Shown: piece after piece, positions 27,764 to 57,910 of the stretch
Layout of the letters: each line of letters starts with the position of its first letter
Numbering within the stretch: the stretch's first letter is position 1
From: Thalassocella blandensis
Lineage (GTDB): Bacteria > Pseudomonadota > Gammaproteobacteria > Pseudomonadales > Cellvibrionaceae
Direction of reading: 5' to 3'
NCBI GenBank assembly: GCA_945882995.1
Contig: CAMCXE010000001.1
Coordinates: 2,084 to 66,083 of the forward strand
DNA length: 64,000 bases
Translations under genes and position numbers: made by a program
Notes under the pieces: model-generated
What the model was told of the DNA's origin: nothing
The model's database searches: none
The model's input: the letters and a program-made list of their open reading frames with translations, nothing else

Positions 27764-29467
27764 ATGAGCACCTCCTCGTCAAGTCCGTTTGAGGCCATAA
27801 AACGCCAGATCGACCGTGCCGCCACCAATCTCATTGAGCAGCGCACAGGAGGTGGTGCCGGTGAAGAGGATGAAATTGCCGTCCTCTTCACCGGCAACTG
27901 GCACGACTCCATACCACGTCGCTTGATTGTTGATGATGTGTTGTCGCCGGTTGAAAAAATTACTTGGCAGGTTATCCGGCTCTCCGTGGTCAACCCATCG
28001 CAGCCGGGGTCGGCTCCGCGCCGTGCCGACCTTGCCAGACATATCAATTGCTCAGCCCCTACCGTCACCAACTCACGCAACATGCTGCGCATTCAACGCT
28101 GGATGACCTTCTGTAAGGCCGTGCGCAAGCAAGGGCGGTTTGTGGGTGAAATCTACCTATTACATGATGAACCGTTTTCACTGGCCACCACCCTTGAGGT
28201 CGATCCGTCTTACATTGAGTTTCTGGAGAAGACTGCTAGCAATGGCAACAAAAATAGCTCACTGCGCAAAGCCGCTGCTACCGAGCTAAAAGCCATTGAT
28301 GCCTTGCGTGGCGACATCAAGCCAGTCAACGAAGTTGAACAAATCGTCAATCGCATTAGTTGGGTGACCGCTAGAGAAATTGGTTACGGCGCGGGGCCGG
28401 GTAATGAGGACACTCCTGAGTCTCACCATGGAAAGATTCTTTCTATGGTGAGCAACCCTGCCAGCACCACGCCATTGGTTAATAAAAAACCTGATCAGGC
28501 TGCAACCAAGGAAACACCGCACCATGGAAAGATTCTTTCCATGGTTGAAGTTGATCAAAAAACGCTCCAGAGCAAAATTCTTTCTCCGGTGAACACCCCG
28601 GAAAATCACCAGAGAAAGAATCTTTCCATGGTGGAAAATGACCAGAGCAAGATTCTTTCCATGGTGGAAAAGTCAGTTAGTCAGTTGGTTTGTAGTAGTA
28701 GTTTATATATAAATAAAAATATTAATGCGCAGGCGGGCGCACACATGCAGGCGCACACAGGCACGCAGGCGCTCGTGCGCGTAGATGAGGCAATTGAAAT
28801 TCAGTCACCGCAGGTCGATCAGCTTGAGCAATTCGATCAAGTCGAGTTATGCGATCTGGACGAGTTTGAGGCCGACATGCTGGCGGCAGAGCGGGGTTTT
28901 GCTGAACTGGAATCACCAGCGGACACGGGTGGCCATCCAGCCAGCGCAGCCCGCAAAACCGGGGAGGAGGGATTTGACGCGGAAACCTTCGAGGATTTGA
29001 TGGATTACCGCCCGCAACACGCCCACTACGAAGACTTGGAATTGCTCGTAAAAACCTACTTGCCCGATATTGCCAGCCCTCGGATCAGTGAGTATGTGCG
29101 GTATTTGCTGGTGACACGTAAGGCTCAGATTCCGCGCATAGCGAGAATGGTTAAGCCTTTGCCGCCGCTGTACCGTAGGCACGTATTGTTTCAGCTGGTG
29201 AGCAAAGCAGCAGCGGATCGCAATGGTTGGTCGAAGGTCGAGCTGGGAAATTTAGCTAGCTACTGCGGCGCCCTCGTTGCAAGCCTGAAGCGCGGCGATT
29301 TTTACATGGACGAATTTGCCACCACATTGCTCGAAGCCGTTGTGGCAGACCGCGAGCCGTACATTCCGACCACAGCTGAAAAACGCGAGCAGTGGCAGTA
29401 CATGAACCTGCCGGACGGGCCGGATTATTACAAGGGGAAGCATTATGAGATTCCTGAGCAAGAGTAA
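27764..29467 (+). CDS. Putative island replication protein (STY4528-like), with embedded iteron / AT-rich module
   Basis: 567 aa. Position after parB and the DUF2857-like gene matches the SPI-7-family replication-protein slot. The middle of the gene carries five dyad-symmetric repeats and a 26-nt pure A/T tract. Confidence 0.45.
   Translation: MSTSSSSPFEAIKRQIDRAATNLIEQRTGGGAGEEDEIAVLFTGNWHDSIPRRLIVDDVLSPVEKITWQVIRLSVVNPSQPGSAPRRADLARHINCSAPTVTNSRNMLRIQRWMTFCKAVRKQGRFVGEIYLLHDEPFSLATTLEVDPSYIEFLEKTASNGNKNSSLRKAAATELKAIDALRGDIKPVNEVEQIVNRISWVTAREIGYGAGPGNEDTPESHHGKILSMVSNPASTTPLVNKKPDQAATKETPHHGKILSMVEVDQKTLQSKILSPVNTPENHQRKNLSMVENDQSKILSMVEKSVSQLVCSSSLYINKNINAQAGAHMQAHTGTQALVRVDEAIEIQSPQVDQLEQFDQVELCDLDEFEADMLAAERGFAELESPADTGGHPASAARKTGEEGFDAETFEDLMDYRPQHAHYEDLELLVKTYLPDIASPRISEYVRYLLVTRKAQIPRIARMVKPLPPLYRRHVLFQLVSKAAADRNGWSKVELGNLASYCGALVASLKRGDFYMDEFATTLLEAVVADREPYIPTTAEKREQWQYMNLPDGPDYYKGKHYEIPEQE
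28424..28667. repeat. Five copies of a dyad-symmetric ~23-27 bp repeat (consensus CACCATGGAAAGATTCTTTCCATGGTG); iteron candidates
   Basis: Copies at 28424-28450, 28520-28546, 28571-28591 (degenerate), 28613-28634 and 28646-28667. CCATGGAAAGA-T-TCTTTCCATGG is a perfect palindrome in copy 2. Confidence 0.85.
28689..28727. other. AT-rich tract (26 consecutive A/T at 28702-28727) inside a coding region; candidate DNA-unwinding element
   Basis: TTTATATATAAATAAAAATATTAAT in an otherwise balanced-GC gene, immediately 3' of the iteron-like repeats and followed by a GC-rich block with 3x GCAGGCG (28728-28790). Confidence 0.6.
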
Positions 29468-29494
29468 AAAAATAACCAGTCTGGTTGGTGACCG

Positions 29495-29566
29495 GTGTGC
29501 AAAAAATAACCAGCTCGATAGCCTATCGAGGTGTGCAAAAAATAACCAGCTCGATAGCCTATCGAG
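29495..29566. repeat. Perfect 36-bp tandem direct repeat (2 copies plus partial flanking copies), each containing the 17-bp palindrome CTCGATAGCCTATCGAG
   Basis: GTGTGCAAAAAATAACCAGCTCGATAGCCTATCGAG at 29495-29530 and 29531-29566. A partial third copy (GTGTGCAA) lies at 29567 and a partial earlier copy (AAAAAATAACCAG) at 29467-29479. Confidence 0.9.
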
Positions 29567-29748: not shown

Positions 29749-30720
29749 ATGAGTGACGATTGGAACCAGCCGGGACAAAGCGACCCTATTTCTGGACCTG
29801 GCACTGTGAATATGACTCCAGGCAAGCTCAGCATGAAGGCTGAGGTAAAGTTTCATAGCCGTTTAGCGATCAACCTGTTTCGGGGTCGCAAGGCTGATCC
29901 GGCCAAGGGTATTCGACCCATCATTGGTTTGGCTCGGTTTGCTCAGCAGTCAGCGCAGGTGTGGTCATCAGCTAGTCGTGATGACCCTATGGCGGATATG
30001 ATTTTGATACGAATTGAGGAGGCGCACGATGCGGCTGAGTTGTTGCTGAAAAACTGTCTTGCGGTGGCGGAGGGGATGCTGGAGTCGCTCAATGGTTTTT
30101 CCATTGATGTTGAGGAGAGTATTCGGCCCGTAAGTTTGGAGCTGAAGTTCTATTCGCCTTGGGCATGGAAAGGCGCATTGCTTCTAAAAAAATACGATGA
30201 ATTGGTTCGCGCTAGTCTCACCGCCCGACACATGGGTTTATTGACTTCCGAAGACTGGACAAAAACCATTAACTCTACCGGTACTGCCATACGTCATATG
30301 TTTGTGCAGGCTGATGCGTTTGTCATGACCCCTCTCAAGCGGAGCAACTTCACGCGCACCAAGAAAGCGGTGGAGAAAAAATATGCCGAGCGGAAACGTG
30401 CGTTTTTGTATGTGCCGCGTGAAGTATTGATTGGCGAACTTCGTGCGAAGCTCTCACCGCCTATTAAAAAATATGAACAGATTGAGCGTGAGGAGCGGGC
30501 TTTGGAGCGACAGGAGGATGATCGTCGCCGCGCCATTGCTAGGGCGGAGAGTGGGGTTGTGGTAGCAAGGCCCAGCTGGATAAGTGCCAGAGATACCATA
30601 ACAACGGACGCTAGGGTTACTGAGGTCACGGGTAGTACAGCCGACAATGTGGCGGGTAGTATTGTCAGTGACAACATTGAAAATATGATTAACGCGACCT
30701 CCAATACAGGAGCACCATGA
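29749..30720 (+). CDS. Hypothetical ICE protein (PFL_4669 / TIGR03761-like by position)
   Basis: 323 aa with a GAGGA SD. The family call is tentative and based on remembered gene order (PFL_4669-like, DUF3158, ssb, topoisomerase). Confidence 0.4.
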   Translation: MSDDWNQPGQSDPISGPGTVNMTPGKLSMKAEVKFHSRLAINLFRGRKADPAKGIRPIIGLARFAQQSAQVWSSASRDDPMADMILIRIEEAHDAAELLLKNCLAVAEGMLESLNGFSIDVEESIRPVSLELKFYSPWAWKGALLLKKYDELVRASLTARHMGLLTSEDWTKTINSTGTAIRHMFVQADAFVMTPLKRSNFTRTKKAVEKKYAERKRAFLYVPREVLIGELRAKLSPPIKKYEQIEREERALERQEDDRRRAIARAESGVVVARPSWISARDTITTDARVTEVTGSTADNVAGSIVSDNIENMINATSNTGAP

Positions 30721-33620: not shown

Positions 33621-33758
33621 CAACAGGAGAACTAAAGTTATCTGTGCTTTTTGTTCACCGCGTCTTACACCAAACGGATCTTTTGAATTGCAATTATTAC
33701 AGTCTGTTGCGGTTGGGCTAAGCCCTTTGCCGCAGTCTACACATTGAGTAAGTGCCAT
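33564..33758 (-). CDS. Small zinc-ribbon plus TM protein (tentative)
   Basis: CVDCG...CNNC zinc-ribbon pattern followed by a hydrophobic helix. Convergent, with a 57-nt overlap onto 33120-33620. Confidence 0.3.
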   Translation of the reverse strand: MALTQCVDCGKGLSPTATDCNNCNSKDPFGVRRGEQKAQITLVLLLLGMIALTYLAHHFGVLVI

Positions 33759-33985
33759 AAATATTTTCCTGCTGTTGACCGCTGAATATTGAGTTGAACC
33801 CAGGTGTACAACCCTAACGCTCGGTTACAGCTGCTTACCGCAGCAACCTTACAGAGTTGGTTGTAAATTGCGCACAGCAATAACCGATTAACGCTGGATG
33901 GCGTGATCCTTACCGCATAGTGTTGGGTATCGCGCATTTTATTGGAATCGACTCATGGGTAACAGTACAGGCAGAGGGTGTAGTC

Positions 33986-36651: not shown

Positions 36652-36858
36652 ATGTTGATAATCTCTCGTCGCATCGGTGAGGTTCTGCGCATTAACGAAG
36701 ATGTACGAATCATGGTGCTGGATGTTGATAAGCACAGTGTTAAGTTGGGTATTCAGGCGCCCAGGCATGTTGTTGTTGATCGTGAAGAGATTTATGTGCA
36801 GCGATTGCAAGCGGGTGCCGGTTTGCCAGCCCCTGCCGCGCAGAGCAACCCGCAATAG
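36652..36858 (+). CDS. csrA: CsrA/RsmA-family post-transcriptional regulator (ICE-borne paralog)
   Basis: MLIISRRIGEVLRINEDVRIMVLDVDKHSVKLGIQAPRHVVVDREEIY aligns along its length with E. coli CsrA ([48 protein letters not shown]). Confidence 0.85.
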   Translation: MLIISRRIGEVLRINEDVRIMVLDVDKHSVKLGIQAPRHVVVDREEIYVQRLQAGAGLPAPAAQSNPQ

Positions 36859-37402: not shown

Positions 37403-37623
37403 TTGCTATGATAAAAGAGCAAATAAAGTGCAGCGGCTTTTTCCTCGCTGAACCTTAGTTCCACCCGTTCCATCTAGATCATTCAATAACGCAAACCTTC
37501 GGGTTTGATGATCGGTCGCAAGACTGCGTTAATTCTGAGTGTTATCGCTCACCCATCGGGGAATTCAAAATCCTGATGGGGTGATGAATTCCCCATTTTT
37601 TTATCAAAATTGAGGATCGTCAC
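37403..37623 (+). promoter_or_regulatory. Type A structured leader, copy 1 (extended -10, conserved hairpins, intrinsic terminator/attenuator)
   Basis: TGCTATGAT extended -10, CAGCG/CGCTG hairpin followed by GAACCTT, CAAACC-UUCG-GGUUUG hairpin, GUC-GCAA-GAC hairpin, and the terminator GGGGAATTC(19 nt)GAATTCCCC-A-T7 at 37558-37602. About 90 percent identical to 38133-38259. Confidence 0.7.
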
Positions 37624-38076
37624 ATGAGCACAACATCTACCACTCCATCCAAGTCCGTTAATGCTGTCACCGCCAAACTGGTCCAAACGCGCCGTCGCAT
37701 GTTAATGCTGCCGACGTATTTCCCTGGTACGTTTATGGTTGCCGAAGGCACCATCTATTCGTTTTTGGATCGGCTGAGTCAGGATTATCAAGGCGGTTTT
37801 TGGGATTTCTTTGAATTGTCCAACGGCGGTTTTTATATGGCGCCCAAGGCCAGTGCAACGGCTCTCAAAACGCATTTCACTATTAGCGTGCCGTTTGGTA
37901 ATGGCTATGAAGGTGAATTGACCTGTGATGCGGCAGGGATAGTGGCTTGTATTTTTGCCTATACCTATTTGGCAGAAACAACTGGCAAAGACTATTACCT
38001 TGACCTGTATGACAACCTGCGAAATTTCGCCTATGGCCACCCAGAAGCAGCTCAAATTCTGAGAGCCATCGACTAA
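37624..38076 (+). CDS. Antirestriction protein (ArdB/KlcA / Pfam Antirestrict family, YfjX-like)
   Basis: FELSNGGFYMAP, CDAAGIVACIFAY and the C-terminal HPEAAQILRAID closely parallel E. coli YfjX (YTLSNGGAFMAP, AEAAGIAVCL, HPESSAIMRIID). Confidence 0.85.
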   Translation: MSTTSTTPSKSVNAVTAKLVQTRRRMLMLPTYFPGTFMVAEGTIYSFLDRLSQDYQGGFWDFFELSNGGFYMAPKASATALKTHFTISVPFGNGYEGELTCDAAGIVACIFAYTYLAETTGKDYYLDLYDNLRNFAYGHPEAAQILRAID

Positions 38077-38094
38077 TTGCAGAGTATTTAGATT

Positions 38095-38122
38095 AAGACC
38101 ATCCTCGGGTGGTCTTTTTTTT
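38095..38122 (+). terminator. Rho-independent terminator
   Basis: AAGACCA-TCCTCGGG-TGGTCTT followed by a T-run. Confidence 0.75.
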
Positions 38123-38132
38123 GCGCTAATTT

Positions 38133-38352
38133 TTGCTATGATGAAAGAGCAAAAAAGTGCAGCGGCTTTTTCCTCGCTGAACCTTTGTAGCATCCAGATC
38201 ATTCAATAACGCAAACCTTCGGGTTTGATGATCGGTCGCAAGACTGCGTTAACCTTACTCAATGAGCATTTCGCTCGCCACCCACTGGGGCAAACACTTG
38301 CCCATTGGGGGTTTGTGTTTCTCCGGTATTTTCTTACTTTTGGAGAAACACT
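38133..38352 (+). promoter_or_regulatory. Type A structured leader, copy 2 (ends in an SD-sequestering hairpin)
   Basis: Same 5' 127 nt as copy 1. The 3' part has the perfect 10-bp stem GTGTTTCTCC (38315-38324) / GGAGAAACAC (38342-38351), which covers the SD 2 nt before the ATG. Confidence 0.7.
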
Positions 38353-39207
38353 ATGAACGCTCAAGCAAACACCACCACTCGCAACGCATCCGTTTCAACC
38401 GCTCGTTCATCTCGCCCTGCGCAAGCCGTGCGAGGTCAATCAGCTAAGCAAGCCGACAGTCACTACTTTAATGCACACTTGGAAGGTATGGGGTATCTCA
38501 ACAATATCCGTGAGATCCAAGGTAAAAGCGGCACGTTTGTGTCGGTGCAATTTTGTATGCTGGAAGGCAAGCCAGACAGTGTGGAGAAAATTTATATCTC
38601 TCTCACGGTACCGGCGGATGATGTAAAAGATTTGCTTACCCAGCATTGGGACGCAATCAATAGCGGTGATGAAGACTCCAAAGTGTATGCCGGATTGCGC
38701 TTGTCGCATTTTCGCGCAGAACCTTTTATGTACGGTGCGAATAGTGCAAAGTCCGGGCAGCTGGGCGTTAACTATTCAGCCCGTGCCATAAAGGTCATGC
38801 ACTTGAAGGTGGGTAGCCAGACAATCGTGTTAAGCTCTCGCGATAGCGAGGCGAAAACCGATTATGGTGTGCCCGCCAAACGAACCGTTGCACCCAAAGC
38901 GGTACCTGCGGCCAGTAATGACACCGGTTTATTTGATAAACCTTTATCGGTGGAATTACGCAAAGATGATCCTAACTTTCAAACGATCGCTGATCGTTTG
39001 CGAGGTGATGGTTATCGCTGGCACAGTGATCGGTTTGCCTGGGTAATGCCTCATGTAACACTTGAGGCCAGCAACCCAAGCTTTACCGAGAAACAGCAGG
39101 CACTCGTGGCGGAAGGATATCGTTCTGATGATGGCTTGGTGTACCACATGACCTTTGGTCGTGGTGCCAGACCACAACAGGCTCGATATTCCGGTAACCG
39201 TCATTAA
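38353..39207 (+). CDS. Hypothetical ICE protein (DUF3577 / STY4534-like, tentative)
   Basis: Start placed at ATG 38353 after the GGAGAA SD. HYFNAHLEGMGYLNNIREIQGKSGTFVSVQFCMLEG resembles my memory of DUF3577 island proteins. Confidence 0.45.
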   Translation: MNAQANTTTRNASVSTARSSRPAQAVRGQSAKQADSHYFNAHLEGMGYLNNIREIQGKSGTFVSVQFCMLEGKPDSVEKIYISLTVPADDVKDLLTQHWDAINSGDEDSKVYAGLRLSHFRAEPFMYGANSAKSGQLGVNYSARAIKVMHLKVGSQTIVLSSRDSEAKTDYGVPAKRTVAPKAVPAASNDTGLFDKPLSVELRKDDPNFQTIADRLRGDGYRWHSDRFAWVMPHVTLEASNPSFTEKQQALVAEGYRSDDGLVYHMTFGRGARPQQARYSGNRH

Positions 39208-41197: not shown

Positions 41198-41348
41198 TTT
41201 AACCAACTTGCAATTCAATGGCGCTCCATAGGGGCGCTTTTTTTTGCCCCAAAATAACTCGGTCGAGGCAAATACAATTTGATGGCCTTCAAAAAATTCT
41301 GGCGCGGATAAGCTTGTATTACTGCCCGTTCATATTTTGGAGAAAGCC

Positions 41349-44300
41349 GTGTCGCATCCGTTTTCATTTGCACTTAAGCCGTTGGCTGCCGTTATCGCCT
41401 TGCTGGCCATTACTGCGACTCCCGCTAGTGCTGGCACCCCCGCGCAAATCAGCTTCCAAAACATCATGGATAACCGCGATGTCACCACTGGCGAAGTGGA
41501 TGCGGTATTGCAAGACAGTCAGGGCTTTTTGTGGATCGGCGGGGCCAGTGGCCTCTATCGGTTTGACGCCTACGACTTAAAACCCATGGATACGCGGCTG
41601 GATGATGGCAAGACCACTAAGGCTATTAAATTCACCAAGGCGATTTTTGAGGATTCCCACCACAAGCTGTGGGTTTCAACCCGGAACGGACTGTATCGGT
41701 ACGATCCGATATTGGATCGTATTGAGGCGCTCCAGGACGATCCCGCGCAAACACTAAAAATTAGCAGCGCCAACTTTTTAAAAACCGTTGAATTACCCAC
41801 TGGTGAAATACTGGGGTGCTCGCTGGCCGGTCTGTTTGTCATCGACCCGCAAACACTCAAATACACGGTGATTACACCCAACAACAAAAAAATTGATTGG
41901 CTACAAGGCAAGGGCGTGAACACCGCGCTAGTTGCAGCGAACGGCGATGTTTGGCTGGGTACGGATCAGGGCCTGGAGTACGTTGAATGGAAAACCAAAA
42001 CCTTCATCTTGCGAAAACCGCTTCCAGAGCAGCCGCAGTTGGTAGCCGAGAATTTTGTGACCAGCATCGCCACGGCTGGCGATGACCAGCTTTGGCTGGG
42101 CACCTCACGAGGGTTGGTGTTGTACGATACAAAATCGCTACACTCCAAGCAGTTCCTTAATAATCCAGCTGATCCTAGCAGTTTAGGCGGCAATGACATT
42201 TGGGATTTGCTGGTGGATTCCAAGGGTGCCTTATGGATCGCCACCGATGGCGGCGGGCTGGATGTATTCGATCCCGAGACTCAAACCTTCACCAATCACA
42301 AATTTGAGCCGGGTCGGGCCACTTCCCTAAATTCCGACAAGCCACGCACGGTATACGAAGATAAAAACGGCGATATTTGGGCGGGAAATTTCCCGAATGG
42401 CCTGAATTTTTACGACCGCTCCAGCGCCGCCATACAAACCTATGCCCGTGATCTCACCAACCCCAACAGCCTGAGTCACAGCGCCATTATTTCCGTCGCT
42501 GAGGCGGATAAGGGCAATTTGTGGGTGGGCACCGATGGTGGCGGATTAAATTATTTTAATCGCGCCACTGGCGAGTTTACCGCGTATAAAAATGACCCCA
42601 ATACGGCCAATTCTTTGGGTGGAAATTCTGTGCCGTCGCTCTTTGTGGATACGGCAGGCGCGGTGTGGCTGGGCACCTTCGGTGCAGGGCTAAACCGTTT
42701 TAATCCGCAGGATAAAACCACCACCCGCTATCCGTTTGAAAACCGAACGCCCACAGAGGCGGTGAGTGTTGCAAAAGCCCTGAACGGGGCCGCTGTGTGG
42801 TCCATTAAGCCGGACAAAGACAACCCTACGCTGTTGTGGCTAACCTCGCGCACCGGCGGAATTAGCCGATTGGATACGCGTACAGGGGAGTTTACGAATT
42901 ATTTTCATGTGGATGGGGACCCGAGTTCCATTGCGAATAATTCCACCTGGACAACCCTTGAGGACTCCACGGGCAATTTTTGGGTAGGTACGGCGGGCGG
43001 TTTAGACCGGCTAGACAAGGCTACGGGCAAATTCGAGCATTATTCTGGCCTGAGCAATTCATCCGCTATTAGTTTGTTGGAGGACAGCAAACAGCGTTTA
43101 TGGGTGGGCACGGACGCAGGTTTAAATTTATTGGACCCGGCCACCAAAACCTTCCAGTCGTTCACCAAGGCAGATGGGTTTGTTGACGACACTATCCGTC
43201 GCATAGTAGAGGATCACAATGGTCTGATCTGGGTAAGTACGTTTAATGGGTTTGCGTCATTGAATCCAGAAACACACAAAATCAAGACCTATAACCGCAT
43301 CGCAGGCCGATTGACCGGGGGCTTTTCTCGCTCGGGTATGTTAACCAGTCGCGGCGAAATAGTATTTGGTGGTGTAAACGGCTTGCGTATTTTTAAGCCG
43401 GATCAGCTTGAAGAAAACGCCGAGTGGCCGCAGGTGGCGCTCACTGATTTCAAGATATTCAGTGATAGCGTAGCTATAGGTGGTGACGACAAGTTGCTGA
43501 CCAGCGCCATTAATGCTACCAATCTAATCACGCTGGACCATACAAAATCCATGTTCACGCTGGAATTTACCGCGCTCAATTTCCGTGATTCTGCAAAAAA
43601 CGAATTCGCCTATAAGCTCGAAGGATTCGATAAAGATTGGATTAATGCCGGTACGGCGCGCACGGCAAAATACACCAATCTGAGTGCAGGCACCTATGTG
43701 TTCAGGGTGAGCGGCAGCAATAACGATGGGGTTTGGAATGAAGCCGGTAAAAGCCTCACCATTGTTCAATTGCCCCCACCCTGGAAAACCTGGTGGGCCT
43801 ATACGCTTTATGGGTTGATGTTTGCGGGGCTGGTGGCGGCATTTATTCGCCAGCAAATTCGTAAGCGCCAGATTATTTTGGAGCAGAACAAAATTCTGGA
43901 GATAAAGGTTGCCGAACGCACGGCGGAAGTGGTGGAGAAGGGCAAAGATATTCAAGCCATGCTGGTGAATATTCGCCAGGGACTATTCACTATTACGTCA
44001 GCGGGATTGGTTCATAACCAGTATTCGGCTTATCTTGAGACTATTTTTGAGTCACAGGATATAGCGGGGAAAGGTGTGGATGAGCTGCTGCTTTCGCGCT
44101 CTGAACTAGGGTCTGACGCTCTGGATTCTACGCAGGCCGCGCTCTTCGCAATCCTAGGTGAGAGCGAATTCAATTTCGAGTGCAACGGCTATTTGTTGCC
44201 GACCGAATTAGTTGTTCGTGTCAGCGGGCACGATAAAATCCTAGCCCTAGAGTGGAACCCCATCATTGAAAATGATGTTGTGAGCAAACTCATGGTGTCG

Positions 44301-45437
44301 GTCAGGGATGTAACGCTCTTGAAAAAAATGGAGGCCGAGGCTAGCGAACAAAAACGACAATTGGAGATTGTGGGCCAGTTACTCGGTATGAGCGCCGAGA
44401 AATTCTTAAACTTTGAGGCGGCTGCCGAAGCCTACATAGCCGCCAATCAAAACGCCCTTGAAAGTGCTCCACCTGAAAAAGACGAGACAACCATTGGCCT
44501 ACTTTTCCGCAATATGCACACCATCAAAGGCAACAGCCGCACCTTTGGCTTGAGCTATTTAAGCAATGTGGTGCATGAGGTGGAGTCAACGTATACCGAA
44601 CTAAAATCGTCCACGGAAAAACCGTGGGAGCCGTCTGCATTATTGCGTGACCTCACCAAAGCGAAAACCGCTTTGGCGGAATACAGCCATATTTATCGGA
44701 ATGTATTGGGTAGATCGCAAAACGAGCAGGAGCGCCAAGCGGGTTTTTGGATGCCCAACACCATGATGCAAAAAATACTGCATTTTGTGGACGGTGGCCT
44801 GCTGATGGATTTGAAAGTGTATGTAAGCAGAATTAATGCTAAACCCCTCGATGAATGCCTGAGCGACGTTACCGCGTCGCTAATTTCCATTGCCGCGCAG
44901 CTCGACAAAAAAGCGCCTAGCGTGATTATCCCCGCCAGCAATATCCGCATTAAACAAAACGCGCAGCAATTATTGCGTGACGTGTTTTCGCATATTTTGC
45001 GTAACTCACTCGATCACGGCCTTGAGCCACCCCTTGAGCGTGTTGCCAATGGCAAGCCCGAGGAGGGCACCATCATCATCACGCCTAGCGTGGTCGATGA
45101 TGCGCTCCATATTTTCGTCAGTGACGATGGACGCGGCCTAAACCTGCGCGCCTTGCATGGCAAAGGCATAAAACTAGGCTGGTGGGCGGAGGATGAAACA
45201 CCCTCGGTAGAGCACATGGCGCAGCTTATATTCGAGTCCGGCGTGTCCACAAAATCCACGATTTCCGATGTGTCGGGCCGTGGTGTAGGTATGGATGCGG
45301 TGCGCCAGTTTCTCATGGAGCGAGGCGGCTCAGTCGGCATAGAGTTAGACCTAGACGCATTGCCAGATACAGGTTTTGTAGCGTTTGCACTGGCCATCGT
45401 TTTACCAGCGAATACGTTTTTTGAAACGGAGGCATAA
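41349..45437 (+). CDS. Sensor histidine kinase: periplasmic two-component-regulator propeller repeats plus Y_Y_Y domain, TM, HPt domain and HATPase domain (CheA-like core)
   Basis: Many GLxxFD/LWIGT-type beta-propeller repeats. YAYKLEGFDKDW...YVFRV (Y_Y_Y), a TM segment, the HPt signature NMHTIKGNSRTFG, N-box LRNSLDHGLE, G1 DDGRGL, G2 GRGVGMD. Probable GTG start at 41349 after GGAGAA. Confidence 0.75.
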   Translation: MSHPFSFALKPLAAVIALLAITATPASAGTPAQISFQNIMDNRDVTTGEVDAVLQDSQGFLWIGGASGLYRFDAYDLKPMDTRLDDGKTTKAIKFTKAIFEDSHHKLWVSTRNGLYRYDPILDRIEALQDDPAQTLKISSANFLKTVELPTGEILGCSLAGLFVIDPQTLKYTVITPNNKKIDWLQGKGVNTALVAANGDVWLGTDQGLEYVEWKTKTFILRKPLPEQPQLVAENFVTSIATAGDDQLWLGTSRGLVLYDTKSLHSKQFLNNPADPSSLGGNDIWDLLVDSKGALWIATDGGGLDVFDPETQTFTNHKFEPGRATSLNSDKPRTVYEDKNGDIWAGNFPNGLNFYDRSSAAIQTYARDLTNPNSLSHSAIISVAEADKGNLWVGTDGGGLNYFNRATGEFTAYKNDPNTANSLGGNSVPSLFVDTAGAVWLGTFGAGLNRFNPQDKTTTRYPFENRTPTEAVSVAKALNGAAVWSIKPDKDNPTLLWLTSRTGGISRLDTRTGEFTNYFHVDGDPSSIANNSTWTTLEDSTGNFWVGTAGGLDRLDKATGKFEHYSGLSNSSAISLLEDSKQRLWVGTDAGLNLLDPATKTFQSFTKADGFVDDTIRRIVEDHNGLIWVSTFNGFASLNPETHKIKTYNRIAGRLTGGFSRSGMLTSRGEIVFGGVNGLRIFKPDQLEENAEWPQVALTDFKIFSDSVAIGGDDKLLTSAINATNLITLDHTKSMFTLEFTALNFRDSAKNEFAYKLEGFDKDWINAGTARTAKYTNLSAGTYVFRVSGSNNDGVWNEAGKSLTIVQLPPPWKTWWAYTLYGLMFAGLVAAFIRQQIRKRQIILEQNKILEIKVAERTAEVVEKGKDIQAMLVNIRQGLFTITSAGLVHNQYSAYLETIFESQDIAGKGVDELLLSRSELGSDALDSTQAALFAILGESEFNFECNGYLLPTELVVRVSGHDKILALEWNPIIENDVVSKLMVSVRDVTLLKKMEAEASEQKRQLEIVGQLLGMSAEKFLNFEAAAEAYIAANQNALESAPPEKDETTIGLLFRNMHTIKGNSRTFGLSYLSNVVHEVESTYTELKSSTEKPWEPSALLRDLTKAKTALAEYSHIYRNVLGRSQNEQERQAGFWMPNTMMQKILHFVDGGLLMDLKVYVSRINAKPLDECLSDVTASLISIAAQLDKKAPSVIIPASNIRIKQNAQQLLRDVFSHILRNSLDHGLEPPLERVANGKPEEGTIIITPSVVDDALHIFVSDDGRGLNLRALHGKGIKLGWWAEDETPSVEHMAQLIFESGVSTKSTISDVSGRGVGMDAVRQFLMERGGSVGIELDLDALPDTGFVAFALAIVLPANTFFETEA

Positions 45438-45442
45438 CAGCC

Positions 45443-45634
45443 ATGGGCGCACTAGAAACTATTACAGGTCAGCATTCAGTGCTCGCTTTGATCGCGGTGT
45501 TTCACTGGACGCTTGGCGCGGCCGCGCTGCTGATTTGTCCCCAGTGGGAGTGGCGAATGACAGGGGTGTCGTGTGTATTCGCGGGCACCATGGCGGCTGT
45601 ACTGCCGGTACTGGCCGCCATGGGTTATGCCTAG
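45443..45634 (+). CDS. Small membrane protein (tentative)
   Basis: 63 aa with two hydrophobic helices, starting 6 nt after the kinase stop. Confidence 0.35.
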   Translation: MGALETITGQHSVLALIAVFHWTLGAAALLICPQWEWRMTGVSCVFAGTMAAVLPVLAAMGYA

Positions 45635-45821
45635 CCGTGGTGGGCGGCGTTTGACGCTTGGCAAATTGGGTGCAGTCTCTCCTGCGGTCAAACCACTGGG
45701 CAGGTTTCGCTGGCGCCAGACACAGTAGTCGGCCTCCTTGGTGCTATTCCTATCCTAGGATATTCCGCTCGCACCTTCAGGCGGCTACGGCTGCAAACGC
45801 TGTGCGTTATTAGCTATTAGT

Positions 45822-45905
45822 TTGACAGTCACGAAAATTTTTGCCAACAATAGTGTGACAGTCACTAAAAATAAAAATTGCCGTTTTCGTGACGGTCACT
45901 ATAAT
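45822..45905 (+). promoter_or_regulatory. Promoter with three palindromic operator-like boxes GTGAC-N-GTCAC
   Basis: Boxes at 45822-45832 (TTGACAGTCAC), 45855-45865 (GTGACAGTCAC) and 45889-45899 (GTGACGGTCAC), spaced 33-34 bp apart. TATAAT at 45900-45905 abuts box 3. TTGCCG lies 16 nt upstream. Confidence 0.6.
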
Positions 45906-45941
45906 TAAGTTACCCGCCACTTCTCGCTATGGGTATATTTT

Positions 45942-46238
45942 ATGATTGACGCTAATGACAACTTCACGATGGACGCTTTCACTGAGGCGCCCCGCCGCAA
46001 AGGCCGCCCGCCCACTGGCAAAGCCATGACGCCATCCGCGCGTAAGGCGGCTCAGCGCAGGCGTGATTTTATGGCGCTGTGTACCGACTTGGGCGCTATT
46101 GATTTTCACGGGGCCTCTATAACCTCGTTGCTGGAATATTTGCCGAAAGCGATTGCTGCGGGCCGCGTCTTGGCGGTTGAGGCAATTGCCGCCGAGCTGA
46201 TTTTGCGGGCAACACACAATAGCGATAATCACGCGTAA
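45942..46238 (+). CDS. Small basic protein, possible DNA-binding regulator
   Basis: 98 aa. Basic N-terminus APRRKGRPPTGKAMTPSARKAAQRRR. Sits behind the three-box promoter. Confidence 0.45.
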   Translation: MIDANDNFTMDAFTEAPRRKGRPPTGKAMTPSARKAAQRRRDFMALCTDLGAIDFHGASITSLLEYLPKAIAAGRVLAVEAIAAELILRATHNSDNHA

Positions 46239-46267
46239 ATCAGCACCAACAATCGAGCGGGGTCTCT

Positions 46268-46528
46268 GTGATGGGAATTTTTGAGGTGGTTGGTTCGGGT
46301 ACCGGCATTGCCGGGGCCATACTCTTGGCGCTAAAAATCCGCTATTCGCCATGGGCCTGGCCACTTTGGGTGCTGTCTTGTTTTGCATGGATTTTGTTTG
46401 GCTTGTCCACTCAAGCCTATCCCTTGGTTGTGCAAAATGCTGTGTTTATCGGTATCAATATCATTGGCACATGGACTTGGCTGGTTAAGCCGTGGCTTCT
46501 GCGCCCCGCGCAGGAAAACAAAATATAA
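46268..46528 (+). CDS. Small 3-TM membrane protein (PnuC/SemiSWEET-like, tentative)
   Basis: 86 aa, Trp-rich TM helices (YSPWAWPLWVLSCFAWILFGL, FIGINIIGTWTW) reminiscent of PnuC-type repeats. Confidence 0.4.
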   Translation: MMGIFEVVGSGTGIAGAILLALKIRYSPWAWPLWVLSCFAWILFGLSTQAYPLVVQNAVFIGINIIGTWTWLVKPWLLRPAQENKI

Positions 46529-46557
46529 CCTCTGAATTATGTAGCAGCCGCACAAAG

Positions 46558-49500
46558 CTATTCGATGGGTAAATGACTCGGTACGGACACCTCCACACAA
46601 TTGCGCCCCGATTGTTTGGCCGTGTAAAGCGCCACATCCGCCAGCTTTAACATTTTATCAAAGGTGTCATCCGGCTTAATGCAGGCAGACACACCCATGC
46701 TAATGGTGACGCTCAACGGGTTGTCACCCTGCTCAAAGGTGTGTGCCGCTACAGCCACGCGGATTTTCTCGGCAAGGCGCACCGCGCTGTCCAGTGTGGT
46801 ACTGGGGCACATCAACACAAACTCCTCGCCGCCCCAGCGGGCCAAGTGGTCGCCCGACCGAATATTCTGCAAAACCACGTCTACCAAACCCTTAATCACC
46901 CTGTCTCCAGCATCATGGCCACGGTTGTCGTTAATGCGCTTGAAGTGGTCAATATCAAAAATCATTAAGCACACGCCCTTTTTCATTTCGTCGTTGATAA
47001 ACAGACCGGCAATGATTTGATTAAGACCGTGGCGGTTATAAATCCCGGTCATGGCGTCGGTAGCGGATAGGGTTTTGTATTTGTCGGTTTGGTTATGCAG
47101 GTGAACCCAGTAACGGCGCCCAATCTCAGCGGCCAGCAACAACAATCCGTAAAGCCCGTAAGCCCAGCTCGTGCGCCAAAAAGGCGGGGTAATTTCAATG
47201 GCAAGACTGGTTTCGCTGGTCATGCCGGGAGTTGCATGGTTGGCGGCGCGCACCCGGAAGCGGTACTGACCTGGAGCCAGGTTGGTATAGGTGGCGGAGC
47301 CTGCGGGTGTGCCCATGCGCCACTGGGTGTCGAAACCTTCCAGCCTGTAGCTGTAGTCATAGCTTGCTGAAGAGACAAAATTTAGGCCCACATAATCAAT
47401 GGAAAACATTGGGTCGCTCCAAGCTAGTTGAAGTTTTTCGGTATGACCTAAGTCTTGGCTCAAAAGTGATCCGGCACTGCCGGGGATTTGTGGTGTGCTG
47501 CCAAGGCGCAGCTCAGTAAGCACTACGCGGTGTAGGTTGGCGGGACTGTCCATCCCGGCACCCTTGGCGGTGACTTTGACCGGATCAAACTCGGTGACCC
47601 CTTCAGTACTGCCGATCCACAAGTGCTGCTGGCGATCTAGCAGCGCCGCGTTGCGCGTCACGCTAGACCCGGCTAGGCCGTGGCGTTTGCGGTAGGTTTG
47701 AACATGGCGACTAACGGGGTCAATATGGGCCAAGCCGTTGATGGTGCCTAGCCACACGCCGCCCTGAGCGTCTTCGATGATGGTGCTGATGGAATTAGAT
47801 GGCAGCCCATTATGGGTGGTGAGCCTACTGAACTGCTCTTTAGTGGGGTCTAGGATGCTCACCCCATCACTCTTGGTGCCCACCCAAATATTGCCCTTGG
47901 AATCCTCCATAAGCGCCAGTATGTGATCCGCTGCAAGGCTGTTAGGGTCGCTGGCACTATGGGTGTAATGGGTGAACCTGCGCGTGGCGATATTGAATTT
48001 ATCCAACCCCTTGAGCGTGCCCAGCCACAAGTTACCTCGGCTGTCCGGCAGCAAGGCTTTAACAAAATCATACGCCAGGGAATTGGGATTGGAGGGGTTG
48101 TGGCTGAAGTTTTCAAAACTGTCGGTGTCGGGACGGTACAGACCAAAGCCCCCTCGCTCCAAATAACACACCCAAAGGTTGCCGGTTTTATCGCGGGCAA
48201 TTTGTGAAATGTAGGGGCTGGCCACCGCGCCGGGGTTATTGGCGTCTGGGTAGTAATTCTTGAAAGTCGCCGTCTGGCGATTAAACCGATGCAGGCCACC
48301 CGACCAAGTGCCCACCCAAAGATTACCACTGGTGTCTTCGCCCAAACTGGTCACCGCATTAAAGCGTAGGCTGTTCGGGTTTTTGGGGTTGGCGGTGTAG
48401 CGAGTGCTAGCGCCAGTCACAGGGCTGATGGAGACTAATCCCGTTTCGCTGCCCACCCAAATAAGGCCTTGGGAATCCTGAAACACACTGGTGATTTGAT
48501 CGAGTGGCTGAGTATTGTCTATGGCGCCTGCGATCTTGTGCGGAATAAAGGTGGCCTTGTGTTCATCGTACAGGTTGACGCCATCCGGGAAGGTGCCAAC
48601 CCATACGTTGCCATCACGGTCTTCAAAAATATCCCGCACTTGATTTGACCGCAAAGAGCCGGGATCAAGGGCATCATGTCGCACGCGGGTAAATTCATCG
48701 GTGCTAGCATCGTAAACCGCAAGCCCGCCATGGTCGGTGGCCACCCACAGGGTTTGGTGGTATTCCCGAATATCCCGTATGGCATCGCTCCCCAGTGACC
48801 GCTCATTATCGGGGTTAGACCGGTAAATTCTGAAGGTTCGCCGGTCGGCGTTCATGCGGCTCAGCCCGCCCGAATAGGAGCCCACCCAGATTTGCCCAAG
48901 GTGGTCTTCATAGATACGCTCAATATCACCCTCTTGGAGCGATGCGGGATCATTGGCGTCGTGGCGCCACCGCTCAAATTTACCGGTCAGCGGGTCAAAT
49001 ACATTCAAGCCTTTGCTTGTAGTTCCAATCCAGACTTTTTGGTGAGAGTCGATAAACAGCGAGCGCGCATTATCGCCGCTCAAGCTGTTCGGGTTGGCGG
49101 CATCGGCCATGTGCTTGCGAAAGCCGGTGCGGTCGGCACTCAGCACATTGAGGCCTGCGGAGGTGCCGATATACAGTTGGTTCTGGGCGTCTACCGCTAG
49201 GGCCATGATCAGGCTACTGCTTAAATCCTTAGCGCCGGAACCTTCCTGGTACCGGGTAAAATCGTCGGTTTGCGCGTTGTAGCGGTTTAAGCCATTAAAA
49301 GTGCCCAGCCAAAGCACACCGGATTTATCCACGGCAAGTGCGGCTATGTAGTTGGACGATAGGGAGCGAGGGTTGAATGGGTCGTAAAAATAGAATTTGA
49401 AGTGCTGCGAATCGTAGCGCGCCAAGCCGTATTCACCGGCAAACCACATAAACCCGTGGCGGTCTTGAATGATGTCTTTAATGGCGCCGATGGATTGTTG

Positions 49501-49756: not shown

Positions 49757-49945
49757 TTGCGCAACAGTCCATTCAGTGCAATGATTAAAGCGCAAAACGT
49801 CTCAACGAACGTACCGTTGACCCTTAAGAGCTGCGCACTGAATCTGTAATCGCAGTATGGCTTTACGGCCTGATTCTATTTTTTAAAACCCGCGCGGGAG
49901 AAATCCCGACCGGGGTGCTCTCGCATTTTTTTTGGAGAGTACCCT
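49757..49945 (+). promoter_or_regulatory. Type B promoter plus structured leader, copy 1 (upstream of radC)
   Basis: TTGCGC, 17 nt, TGcAATGAT. Hairpin TCAACG(7 nt)CGTTGA followed by CCCTT. CGGGA-GAAA-UCCCG hairpin. SD-sequestering stem 49914-49922 / 49935-49943. Confidence 0.7.
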
Positions 49946-50631: not shown

Positions 50632-50792
50632 AATAAAAAGCTCCCTCAAAATGCTGAAACGGGAGCGCCCAATCTTCGGATTGGGTGGCATTAAACCTAA
50701 CAGGCGAAAGCCTTCACTCAACCCACTGGGGCAATTTTCCCAGTGGGGAAAGTTGTGTCTCCAGTGGGTTAATTTAATTTGGAGATACAACC
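50632..50792 (+). promoter_or_regulatory. Type C structured leader / intercistronic element, copy 1
   Basis: Nearly identical to 51904-52064. Hairpins GCUCCC...GGGAGC, CCCAAUC-UUCG-GAUUGGG, AGGC-GAAA-GCCU and CCCACUGGGG / CCCAGUGGGG / CCAGUGGG (alternative pairings), plus the SD stem 50755-50762 / 50781-50788. Confidence 0.7.
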
Positions 50793-57731: not shown

Positions 57732-57910
57732 GGAGAGTAAAAATCGTGACTTTCACGAACCCGTAAGCGAAGTCAGGGCGCAAGCCTGGGGTTCATTGTA
57801 ATTTGTAAACACTCACTGTTTTCATTTGAAAACAACACCTTGACCCTGCGGGCACAAACTCCCGTAGGGGCTTGTGTTGGCGGGGTTTTCTTATTTTTGA
57901 GGAAACCTTT

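Follow-up and report, generated by a model that had tools for sequence, protein, structure and literature searches.

The 64,000-nt stretch of Thalassocella blandensis DNA analysed here (the window) carries a PFGI-1/pKLC102-type integrative conjugative element (ICE); the family includes PAPI-1, pKLC102, ICEclc and SPI-7 and is important in medicine and bioremediation. Within this element, leaders of a common layout precede the antirestriction, DUF3577/STY4534, radC, DUF3275 and SNF2 helicase genes and three unnamed ORFs, with the DUF3275 gene being followed by a DUF6094 methyltransferase gene. The layout runs from an extended -10 box lacking a -35 through a 5' hairpin (P0), a pseudoknot domain, an AU-rich spacer and a hairpin H1 to a second hairpin, H2, which buries the SD and the AUG (Table 1).

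Two of these leaders, copy 1 (A1) before the antirestriction gene and copy 2 (A2) before the DUF3577 gene, had been singled out in an earlier sequence-only reading as a module duplicated at about 90% identity around an identical 57-nt core. The core stands as the longest run identical in the two copies, and the identity holds when counted over the longer copy; across the aligned columns it reaches 97.5% (117 of 120 positions), A2 being without 10 nt of linker relative to A1, and the bounds of both modules are now placed exactly. The shared hairpins and other listed features were each found where that reading had put them, in both copies. The pair is thus real, but what had been missed is a family of at least eight members and the 3' architecture common to them. 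Judged by their conserved pairing, A1 and A2 are genuine mRNA leaders with structure and no private duplication, since the mobile element has at least eight such leaders.

Each copy opens with a putative extended -10 promoter, as had been proposed, and this assignment is backed by TGnTAnnnT boxes which, read by eye, lie similarly close upstream of the 5' hairpin in nine related DUF3577 leaders. A P0-type hairpin followed by CUU(U)A is likewise seen again in homologous leaders. The proposal of a transcribed, structured 5' leader is supported at the level of sequence. In A1, an AAG upstream of P0 can pair with the CUU and so close the 5' end.

Table 1. Coordinates of the leaders, their parts and associated features in the window.
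Feature	Position	Strand	Description	Basis
Possible ninth pseudoknot domain	33807-33887	+	Upstream of topB; UCGGUU/AACCGA; weak	Descriptor scan only
ICE-encoded CsrA paralogue	36652-36858	+	68 aa; candidate trans regulator	Pfam PF02599, E 1.2e-17
A1 module	37403-37532		130 nt	
A1 extended -10 box	37404-37412	+	TGCTATGAT; no usable -35	Sequence
A1 P0	37431-37456	+	5' hairpin CAGCG-N10-CGCTG, then AACCUU	Sequence
A1 identical core	37476-37532		57 nt	
A1 pseudoknot domain	37477-37531	+		Covariance-model match, permutation test, pair counts
A1 P1	37477-37513		Outer stem GATCAT/ATGATC enclosing CAAACC-TTCG-GGTTTG	
A1 pseudoknot pairing	37487-37493 / 37525-37531	+	TAACGCA with TGCGTTA	Complementarity
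A1 P2	37515-37524		GTC-GCAA-GAC	
A1 H1	37550-37583	+	Clamped hairpin CACCCAUCG...GAUGGGGUG; also potential antiterminator	MFE folds
A1 terminator-like hairpin (A1 only)	37558-37567 / 37585-37594; T7 37596-37602	+	GGGGAATTCA / TGAATTCCCC	Sequence
A1 H2	37581-37626	+	Sequesters SD GAGGA (37612-37616) up to ATG at 37624	MFE
Antirestriction-gene terminator (plus a T run)	38095-38116		Upstream of A2	
A2 module	38133-38252		120 nt	
A2 extended -10 box	38134-38142	+	TGCTATGAT; about 10 nt past the antirestriction-gene terminator	Sequence
A2 P0	38160-38185	+	5' hairpin CAGCG-N10-CGCTG, then AACCUU	Sequence
A2 identical core	38196-38252		57 nt	
A2 pseudoknot domain	38197-38251	+	Same sequence as in A1	Repeat comparison, covariance model, pair counts
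A2 P1	38197-38233		As in A1	
A2 P2	38235-38244		As in A1	
A2 H1	38278-38312	+	Hairpin CCACCCACUGGGGCA...UGCCCAUUGGGGGU	Folds
A2 H2	38315-38355	+	GUGUUUCUCC/GGAGAAACAC, stem 38315-38324 / 38342-38351, U-rich loop; ATG at 38353	Sequence, folds
Leader B1	49777-49945	+	Before radC; TGCAATGAT box, P0, pseudoknot domain 49831-49876 (GAAUC/GAUUC), H1, H2	
Leader C1	50615-50792	+	Before 370-aa ORF; TATGGT box, GAAA hairpin, H1, H2	
C1 pseudoknot domain	50640-50692	+	AAUGC/GCAUU; P2 loop C(UUCG)G	
Leader C2	51912-52064	+	Before 161-aa ORF; pseudoknot domain, H1, H2 only	Repeat family D2
Leader B2	52673-52895	+	Before 68-aa ORF; TGCAATCAT box, P0 tandemly duplicated, H1, H2	
B2 pseudoknot domain	52762-52807	+	CAGGU/ACCUG; P2 AGAC-GCAA-GUCU	
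Leader B3	55074-55246	+	Before DUF3275 gene; B1-like layout	
Leader H	57747-57910	+	Before SNF2 helicase; pseudoknot GAACCC/GGGUUC, P2 GGC-GCAA-GCC, H1, H2	

Members of the family differ in how much of the 5' part they carry. Leader H is without P0, and its position implies that the helicase starts at the ATG at 57911. C2 lies between cistrons and has neither promoter nor P0; since a promoter is likewise missing from the leader upstream of ard in the related locus L015, the element is not itself a promoter. The candidate upstream of topB has no H1/H2 platform and is a doubtful member.

The pseudoknot domain folds independently and comprises three helices, namely P1, P2 and a pairing of the P1 loop with the strand directly 3' of P2. 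Among 30 instances, the Watson-Crick run between the two pseudoknot strands averaged 5.4 bp with the leader's own partner and 2.6 bp with the partners of other leaders, and runs of at least 5 bp were found in 87% and 3.8% of these pairings, respectively. The observed mean was attained in none of 5000 permutations, and 25 different pseudoknot sequences were represented. In a covariance-model alignment in which the pseudoknot was not modelled, 93.9% of the pseudoknot pair cells were paired compared with 70.8% in shuffles, the covariation score was 0.604 against 0.208 (none of 500 shuffles reached the observed value), and five of the six pairs showed changes on both sides even though the alignment had not been fitted to them. 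P1 and P2 were paired in 97.6% and 97.2% of cells, with compensatory changes. What the sequence-only reading had offered as a pseudoknot candidate is therefore borne out by compensatory change, in the permutation test as well as in the pair counts.

A covariance model built from other leaders recovered both copies far beyond chance. The first model, whose seed contained no type A copy, found A1 and A2 at E values of about 4e-4 and 8e-4, and after one iteration, with both now inside the rebuilt model, each stood at about 1e-6 (1.4e-6 for A1). Every match lay on the + strand. Two rounds recovered seven window copies, but even with filters off the models failed to match leader H, the topB candidate, the classical radC RNAs and most of the L015 copies. 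MAFFT alignments of the domain were structurally inconsistent, and only a length-matched seed of six sequences was usable. A loose P1-P2-pseudoknot descriptor had a high background, with 219 + strand and 162 - strand matches compared with about 145 for shuffled sequence, and served only to nominate candidates that were then curated.

Related metagenomic ICEs carry such leaders as well; in independent elements of this kind, homologous leaders precede the DUF3577 genes. Retrieval was guided by the DUF3577 protein and its alignment, which yielded five proteins, four genome loci and five metagenome loci of a rare lineage; homologues of the antirestriction protein were mostly on contigs too short for use. 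The pairings, whose loss from homologues had been named as one outcome that would count against the module, are kept there through many compensatory changes. When the region was compared by blastn with plasmids and with E. coli genomes, matches were confined to the coding sequence of antirestriction genes, or there were none; two plasmids matched in this way were set aside as unrelated MOBP/MOBQ replicons.

Downstream of the pseudoknot domain, MFE folds predicted a CCC/GGG-clamped H1 followed by an H2 sequestering the SD and AUG in 26 of 27 leaders folded, the exception being the doubtful topB candidate. The H1 pattern, CCCnnnGGG(A)...(U)CCCnnnGGG, is likewise found in 26 of the 27, and the AU-rich spacer, H1 and H2 are predicted for all eight full leaders of the window. 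In A1, the predicted H2 pairs GTGATGAATTCC with GGATCGTCAC and gives the SD a modelled unpaired probability of 0.16; in A2, the perfect 10-bp stem over the SD was confirmed as first described. Because H1 and H2 are shared by 26 of 27 leaders, copy 1 included, the earlier view that the two copies end in different, gene-specific expression platforms is only partly right. A pseudoknot domain set within a fixed two-part leader that ends in a hairpin burying the SD and AUG points to translational control.

Copy 1 does carry a terminator-like hairpin, formed in the RNA by GGGGAAUUCA and UGAAUUCCCC plus U7 (37558-37602), that is incompatible with both H1 and H2. Its position, its U7 and its distance of 21 nt from the ATG were correct in the sequence-only reading, but the stem has 10 bp instead of 9 and encloses a 17-nt loop, and it is because of this loop length that a consensus terminator scan missed it. 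The G/C-ended stem, the U7 tract so near the ATG and the mutual exclusion with H1 or H2 might suggest an attenuator, the layout seen in the sequence-only reading, with the antirestriction gene controlled chiefly by premature termination at 37602. We regard this as unlikely, since such a loop is atypical and the scan gave no call, the MFE structure favours H1 and H2 although the hairpin is present in the centroid structure, and no terminator of this type occurs in A2 or in the only other antirestriction-gene leader sampled, that of L015. The A1 terminator is apparently a copy-specific overlay that is not conserved in other leaders.

The sequence-only reading had treated the module as novel, but its architecture fits two published motifs, the radC RNA and the repeat unit of STAXI, both described in the same study (Weinberg et al., 2010, Genome Biol 11:R31, PMC2864571). 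Like radC RNA, the leaders here begin with a 5' hairpin flanked by a short outer stem. A linker leads to P1 and an abutting, often tetralooped P2; the P1 loop forms a pseudoknot with the strand just 3' of P2, and additional hairpins follow, up to a stem that sequesters the SD ahead of the ATG. P0 with its short outer stem, P1 and the abutting P2 were recognised in the leaders, P0 being absent in C2 and H, and the script that finds the P1-loop pseudoknot (radC cov_SS_cons_1) in them also recovers it in three of four published radC seeds. The gene set is the same (radC, antirestriction, methyltransferases and ICE genes), the leaders of the Antirestrict, DUF3577/STY4534, RadC, DUF3275 and SNF2 genes lie in the 5' UTRs of DNA-handling genes as radC RNAs do, and both are present several times in one ICE. 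The Rfam radC model gave three matches of 90-102 bits in a classical ICE plasmid used as a positive control (L016), and one of these RNAs lies directly upstream of the STY4534/DUF3577 gene, which is the orthologous position of A2.

At the level of sequence the two diverge. The conserved nucleotides of radC RNA, CAUGCCC (CRUGCCC linker) and GRYCUUCAAGGCURC (GYAGCC..GRYCUUCRAGGCURC), are absent from these leaders, in which the linker reads AACCUU or CUUUA and the P1 arms vary; the P1 loop has 13-17 nt or an inserted hairpin as opposed to 11 nt in radC, and the pseudoknot has 5-8 bp as opposed to the 4 annotated. None of the leaders reached the RF01754 gathering score of 40 bits, and the Rfam scan proposed in the sequence-only reading returned no match to RF01754 or RF01728 in the window or in ten related loci (L001-L010), whether at gathering, E<=5 or E<=10. 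Conversely, covariance models built from these leaders did not match the classical radC RNAs. With no cross-matching of models in either direction, the case for homology to radC is one of architecture and genomic position, not of sequence. Given the match in architecture and the lack of an Rfam match, we place the leaders as a variant of a known orphan class and call them a divergent form of the radC/STAXI type of RNA leader.

The likeness to STAXI, parsed by eye from the published alignment, is that its repeat unit equals the pseudoknot domain of the leaders; the example from Salmonella Typhi SPI-7 reads CGCUUC-A-CAACC-UGAAA-GAAGCG, then CCUG..AGG, then GGUUG. The STAXI loop signature, in which the 5' pseudoknot strand is followed by UGAAA or UGCAA, can be read in about half of the leaders, and UUCG loops, frequent in STAXI, occur in them too. 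Within the same superfamily of ICEs, STAXI is found next to genes for ssb, topoisomerase, antirestriction and integrase. It consists of two to three tandem units and was filed as a possible sRNA or ssDNA, whereas the leaders here have a single pseudoknot unit each and always form a 5' UTR with an SD platform. radC and STAXI, which have been orphan motifs since 2010, have their pseudoknot unit in common. The class extends beyond what the Rfam models cover, and annotation pipelines will miss leaders such as these. The literature searched yielded no functional work on radC RNA or on DUF3577 leaders.

As to how such leaders act, a riboswitch would take the pseudoknot domain as a small-molecule aptamer whose ligand alters the platform, by termination in copy 1 and by SD exposure elsewhere. 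A compact pseudoknot of conserved architecture upstream of many genes would suit this, as would the terminator/antiterminator pair of copy 1; radC itself was marked "complex" by Weinberg et al., who left its riboswitch status open (PMC2864571). Known aptamers, however, retain a fixed pocket, while here the helices differ almost wholly between copies, and a 20-sequence MAFFT alignment of the domain, structurally inconsistent as noted, has no invariant column and a single column conserved at 90% or more. The copy 1 terminator is not conserved, and domain and platform have no strand in common. In a secondary-structure model of 17 leaders the mean SD unpaired probability was 0.196, 0.195 and 0.194 irrespective of the state of the pseudoknot strands, so that blocking or removing them left the SD pairing unchanged and competition between sensor and platform strands was not predicted. 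On these grounds we consider a riboswitch very improbable. Of the two options in the earlier phrase "riboswitch-like or protein-controlled", the competing-strand riboswitch is unpredicted and the protein-controlled leader is the more plausible half.

The strand on which the structural signals lie bears on a further alternative. P2 loops were GNRA or UUCG in 16 of 30 instances, read on the + strand (UUCG in three of the 30, and again in P1b of A1 and A2), and G-U exceeded A-C combinations by 15 to 6, or by 12 to 3 with one mis-parse removed, small numbers in either case. Such loops and G-U pairs indicate a sense-strand RNA. The alternative would have the hairpins fold in the transferred strand, either as an Frpo-like ssDNA promoter for early expression of the genes in the recipient or as a priming signal for early copying of the strand there. 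Frpo-type ssDNA promoters are common in the leading regions of plasmids (Masai and Arai, 1997; Samuel et al., 2024, PMC11541004), they occupy the same niche of conjugative elements, upstream of genes for anti-defence and ssDNA handling, and they too contain hairpins; the ICE region is rich in ssDNA, DNA-processing and anti-restriction genes, all on one strand, and the authors of STAXI raised a possible ssDNA role for that motif (PMC2864571). An Frpo, however, must fold in the template (-) strand, whereas the tetraloops and G-U pairs here are on the sense strand; the - strand DNA fold of copy 1 is unexceptional (z -1.5), and - strand folds give only local hairpins. Unlike Frpo, the leaders have no -35/-10 duplex mimic, their -10 box lying outside any conserved long stem and its partner not being conserved in homologues. 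Promoter-less copies between cistrons also speak against a ssDNA element, as does a 3' hairpin placed exactly on the SD and AUG, where it is relevant only in RNA. Strand and anatomy led us to reject the Frpo-like reading, and we give a ssDNA role of the kind described scarcely any credence.

Upstream of the structured part, the type A and B leaders have in common a box, TGCWATGATWAAAGnGCAAA, with a related form in C1; the TGCWATGATWAAAG motif occurs six times against 1.8 expected, and one of the published radC seeds is preceded by a similar GUGCAAUCAgAAGGC string. Such a box could be a DNA operator bound by an ICE repressor or activator, for instance the AcaB-like protein encoded at 29749-30720, and responsible for zygotic induction, with the RNA structures being secondary. 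A precedent exists in the CUP elements of the IncN plasmid pKM101 (Delver and Belogurov, 1997, as cited in PMC6289460), which, as far as that citing account describes them, follow the same logic of a repeated unit before each leading-region or anti-restriction gene under one common control, and are DNA operators/promoters bound by the ArdK repressor. Unlike CUPs as described there, the unit here is mostly transcribed, is conserved as RNA pairing and bears no sequence relation to CUP. An operator would account for at most the first 25 nt or so, whereas what persists in the pseudoknot domain, H1 and H2 is the pairing rather than the sequence; the structures also occur where the box does not (C2, H and the L015 ard leader), and no palindromic operator is evident in it. 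As the principal explanation an operator is distinctly unlikely, though it can coexist with an RNA explanation.

We judge it somewhat more probable than an even chance that the repeats are modular cis-acting 5' leader RNAs of the radC/STAXI class, fronting each DNA-processing or anti-restriction "establishment" gene of a PFGI-1/pKLC102-type ICE. Transcription would start a few nt past the -35-independent extended -10 box, and P0 and the short AAG/CUU stem would close the 5' end. H2 would keep translation initiation low; release, or additional repression, would come from a trans-acting factor that reads the conserved RNA shapes, not from a strand-swapping riboswitch. The pseudoknot and P0 may form a 5' protective or insulating domain, or a handle for a protein, roles that would also suit internally processed cistrons such as that behind C2. 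In copy 1 only, disruption of H1 would additionally let the terminator form. Overall, the ICE establishment genes would share one post-transcriptional setting and, if so, this would explain how such ICEs set the level at which their anti-restriction and ssDNA-handling genes are expressed while the element establishes itself in a new host.

A bolder extension, which we hold to be doubtful, is that radC, STAXI and the present leaders form one pseudoknot-leader superfamily, the operators of a dedicated post-transcriptional "establishment regulon" in PFGI-1/pKLC102/SPI-7-type ICEs, in which SD occlusion would keep all anti-restriction and DNA-processing genes translationally silent until they are switched together. 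The switch might then be an RNA-binding protein encoded by the element itself, in this case its CsrA paralogue, or a signal in the fresh transconjugant. Such a regulon, if real, would be the RNA-level counterpart of Frpo promoters and CUP operators.

The best candidate for the trans-acting factor would be a CsrA-type protein, either the ICE paralogue or the host CsrA, binding GGA both in the SD and in H1, at the top of the latter or at its 3' edge. The ICE csrA gene lies 550 nt upstream of copy 1, and its product scores 71 bits against an NCBIfam CsrA cut-off of 73; its proximity makes it a concrete and testable candidate regulator. Only L013 has a homologue in the corresponding position, and the gene is absent from the available sequence of L001, L003, L008 and L015. 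As a universal partner of the leaders the ICE csrA was rejected, being present only in the window and L013. Besides the GGA in the SD, at least one more precedes the SD window in 25 of 27 leaders (34 in total against 18.4 expected), which resembles CsrA/RsmA-repressed leaders with their two or more GGA sites, one overlapping the SD; unlike the loop-displayed GGA of those targets, however, the upstream GGA here, at the top or 3' edge of H1, is mostly base-paired within the stem in MFE folds. The link between CsrA and the leaders, drawn from these motif counts and gene positions, is accordingly a weak one. Control of ICE traits by CsrA homologues that the ICE itself encodes has precedents, with csrT genes being found on Legionella ICEs; most related ICEs sampled here are without a csrA of their own, and the window ICE resembles the csrT-bearing Legionella elements in encoding a CsrA paralogue of its own.

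The structured leader family to which copies 1 and 2 belong is real and well supported. The description of these two copies in the sequence-only reading was borne out, with all of the named pieces found in the sequence. Copy 1, before the antirestriction gene, extends over 37403-37532 (130 nt), and copy 2, before the DUF3577/STY4534 gene, over 38133-38252 (120 nt); the two agree at 117 of the 120 aligned positions, the linker of copy 2 is shorter by 10 nt, and the longest identical run is indeed 57 nt. The box TGCTATGAT, the 5' hairpin CAGCG-N10-CGCTG followed by AACCTT, the GATCAT/ATGATC stem enclosing CAAACC-TTCG-GGTTTG, and the GTC-GCAA-GAC hairpin were each located, as were the proposed pseudoknot strands (TAACGCA, complementary to TGCGTTA) and the 10-bp stem over the Shine-Dalgarno sequence (SD) of copy 2. 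No usable -35 box was seen in either copy, and a consensus promoter scan of the + strand called no -35/-10 pair. A strong terminator called by consensus scan at 38095-38116 ends the antirestriction gene, with the box of copy 2 following after approximately 10 nt.

The window is an ICE of the PFGI-1/pKLC102/ICEclc/SPI-7 kind, and searches for repeats and motifs, and then inspection of its intergenic regions, identified related leaders preceding radC (B1), a 68-aa ORF (B2), DUF3275 (B3), a 370-aa ORF (C1), a 161-aa ORF (C2) and the helicase gene (H). Within leader B2 the 5' hairpin unit is tandemly duplicated at 52699-52757 (CAGCGAACGCACCGCTGAACCTT, then TGGCGAACGTACCGCCGAACCTT, 36 nt apart). 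Relatives were gathered via DUF3577 homologues, which gave approximately 14 loci in the collections searched, all from Gammaproteobacteria MAGs or metagenomes. In all nine loci where the upstream region was available, a leader of the same build precedes the DUF3577 gene, with several loci carrying further copies before other genes.

Coordinates of genes in the window and of radC RNAs in the comparison plasmid
Feature	Position	Strand	Basis
Type IV secretion + coupling genes	822-21022	-	
MOBH TraI	21820	+	
ParA	24520	+	
DUF2857	27202	+	
AcaB-like	29749	+	
SSB	32605	+	
TopB	33920	+	
PilL2-like	36139	+	
CsrA paralogue	36652-36858	+	
Antirestriction	37624	+	
DUF3577/STY4534	38353	+	
TraT	40421	+	
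Sensor cargo	41337-49617	+	
RadC	49946	+	
DUF3275	55247	+	
DUF6094 methyltransferase	55805	+	
SNF2 helicase	57872 (ORF call, TTG)	+	
radC RNAs of L016 (NZ_CP076684.1)	18618-18761, 19977-20122, 23812-23950		Rfam radC model

Read 5' to 3', the first element is an extended -10 box (TGnTAnnnT), which in the related DUF3577 leaders precedes the first hairpin by a short and similar distance. This hairpin (P0) is followed by CUU(U)A, which is able to pair with AAG just 5' of P0. The pseudoknot domain comprises P1 (5-8 bp, with a loop of 13-17 nt that is longer in leaders with an additional hairpin in it, such as copies 1 and 2) and P2 (3-7 bp, beginning 0-2 nt past P1), and the 5-8 nt right after P2 pair with the initial portion of the P1 loop. 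The spacer leading to the platform is AU-rich and in some leaders contains a small hairpin; in the platform, H1 has the form CCCnnnGGG(A)-loop-(U)CCCnnnGGG and H2 has a U-rich loop and a 3' arm running from the SD through the start codon. Because the layout of the helicase leader puts H2 over GAGGAAACC, the true start of that gene, within 57872-57913, is likely the ATG at 57911 rather than the TTG of the mechanical ORF call. Leader C2 and the antirestriction-gene leader of related locus L015 begin directly after the preceding ORF and have neither box nor P0, indicating a pseudoknot-plus-platform unit that works between cistrons too and does not by itself constitute a promoter.

The pseudoknot domain is conserved. 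Among 30 curated instances, the post-P2 strand matched the P1 loop of its own leader over a longest Watson-Crick run of 5.4 on average, compared to 2.6 with non-homologous partners, and 0 of 5000 permutations attained the own-partner mean; runs of at least 5 occurred in 87% of own pairs and 3.8% of cross pairs. Homologs lacking the conserved pairing had been named as grounds against the leader, and the pairing was kept across the 25 different pseudoknot sequences that these instances contain. The covariance-model check proposed earlier also recovered both copies: a seed of six leaders, with no type A member and the pseudoknot not modelled, matched copy 1 at E 4e-4 and copy 2 at E 8e-4, and one iteration in which the first matches were added to the model recovered seven window copies at E 1e-10 to 2e-5, with all matches on the + strand. 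In the resulting alignment 93.9% of cells were paired (70.8% in shuffles), the covariation score was 0.604 (0.208 in shuffles, 0/500; 0.03-0.15 in slid controls), and five of the six pseudoknot pairs showed two-sided changes.

The P2 tetraloops (13 GNRA and 3 UUCG among 30), the excess of G-U over A-C pairs when both are treated alike (15 to 6, and 12 to 3 once one mis-parse is removed) and the exact placement of H2 on SD and AUG argue for sense-strand RNA as the folded molecule rather than the template DNA strand, whose predicted fold for copy 1 was unremarkable (z -1.5). A single-stranded DNA promoter or priming site is thus an unlikely reading of the leaders: the structural signals are on the wrong strand for either, intercistronic copies occur, and a promoter of this type would lack its duplex mimic of -35/-10. 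Operator repeats at the DNA level, of the CUP kind, could account for no more than the promoter box, a reading which is compatible with the RNA model.

The sequence-only reading took the expression platforms to be gene-specific; this did not hold, since H1 plus H2 are predicted in 26 of 27 leaders and the platform is, as modelled, conserved. The exception is a candidate upstream of topB (33689-33887), where the TGCAATTATTACAG box is weak and a pseudoknot domain is possible (P1 TACAACC/GGTTGTA, P2 ATTGC/GCAAT, pseudoknot TCGGTT/AACCGA), whose membership is uncertain because H1/H2 are absent. Predicted SD accessibility was low (mean unpaired probability 0.19-0.20) and was the same with the pseudoknot strands free, blocked or removed, suggesting that the two halves are thermodynamically independent modules. 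This is at odds with a strand-swap form of the proposed riboswitch-like architecture, as is the absence of invariant nucleotides from the alignment of the pseudoknot domain, imperfect as it is; with both a competing strand and a conserved pocket absent, we consider a riboswitch improbable. The attenuator layout proposed for copy 1 is possible. Its terminator-like stem and U7 are present, with a stem of 10 bp and a 17-nt loop instead of the 9 bp described, and overlap both H1 and H2, such that loss of H1 would favour termination; this feature is local to copy 1, not conserved among the compared leaders, and its long loop was not called by the consensus terminator scan. Under the two-module RNA model, H2 would keep translation low, P0, the closing stem and the pseudoknot would form a structured 5' end with a possible role in protecting or insulating the mRNA or as a protein handle, and a trans factor would set the level of all leaders jointly.

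These leaders do not form a new category but a variant, diverged in sequence, of an orphan RNA class first described in 2010. An Rfam scan of the window and ten related loci gave no match to the leaders, which current Rfam models miss. As described in the supplement of Weinberg et al. (2010; PMC2864571), the radC motif (RF01754) runs from an outer stem and P0 through a linker to P1 (11-nt loop), the abutting P2 and an annotated pseudoknot (GRYC paired with GRYC), followed by hairpins and an SD-sequestering stem. It precedes radC, antirestriction, methyltransferase and integrase genes; on this description its architecture is the same as that of the window leaders. The parser used here recovered P1, P2 and the pseudoknot in three of four published radC seeds. 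The Stutzerimonas megaplasmid NZ_CP076684.1 (pKLC102/PFGI-1 type; PLSDB type non-mobilizable) carries three canonical radC RNAs at 90-102 bits, one of them directly 5' of the STY4534/DUF3577 gene, the position of copy 2. Because models built from our leaders do not match classical radC RNAs, the leaders are placed in the radC/STAXI class, as a divergent variant, by architecture and position, not by sequence. In the published STAXI (RF01728) alignment for SPI-7, Yersinia and Photorhabdus, each repeat appears by eye to be the same P1-P2-pseudoknot unit as the radC core, and its loop signature, the pseudoknot 5' strand followed by UGAAA/UGCAA, can be read in approximately half of our leaders. Both motifs come from the same ICE superfamily (SPI-7, PAPI-1 and ICEclc hosts; supplement files 84 and 86 of PMC2864571), and the main-text passages and radC supplement note consulted in that paper draw no link between them. 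No functional study of radC was found in the literature searched. The value of the present leaders lies in a clear two-module anatomy, in a common pseudoknot unit that ties radC to STAXI, and in a neighbouring CsrA gene that puts the long-standing question of function within reach of a test.

This CsrA paralogue (68 aa; Pfam E 1.2e-17; NCBIfam 71 bits, cut-off 73 bits) lies 550 nt upstream, flanked by the PilL2-like gene and a 165-aa ORF. Judged by eye and not from an alignment, it retains the N-terminal and REEIY residues of E. coli CsrA. GGA occurs upstream of the SD in 25 of 27 leaders (34 in total, 18.4 expected), usually at the top or 3' edge of H1. Since these GGA are mostly paired, and an ICE csrA homologue occurs elsewhere among the sampled loci only in L013 (2102-2254), CsrA regulation of the leaders is a lead, not a result.

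Further repeats were observed in the window. At 23187-23748, within the part of TraI (MOBH relaxase) that separates its two Pfam domains, the coding sequence contains an imperfect array of 36-nt period, probably a repetitive linker. A 567-aa ORF (27764-29467) holds, internally or at its end, four copies of a near-perfect 26-nt palindrome (CACCATGGAAAGATTCTTTCCATGGTG), and a perfect 36-nt tandem duplication comes just after them (28424-28677 and 29494-29565 for these repeats together); these may be partition or origin sites. A CRISPR-like mini-array at 60402-60615 combines three intact repeats of 27 nt (GTTTCCCGCCGCTAAGGCGGTTTAAAG) with a degenerate fourth, and has a period of 59-60 nt and unique spacers of approximately 32 nt, with no cas gene among the scanned ORFs of the region and no Rfam CRISPR match; an AT-rich stretch lies upstream, and terminator-like hairpins flank the array at ~60283-60306 and 60650-60675. 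Between leaders B2 and B3, two overlapping small ORFs on the - strand (138 and 88 aa; 54280-54962) resemble, on inspection by eye, a VapC/PIN-type pair of type II toxin and antitoxin genes.
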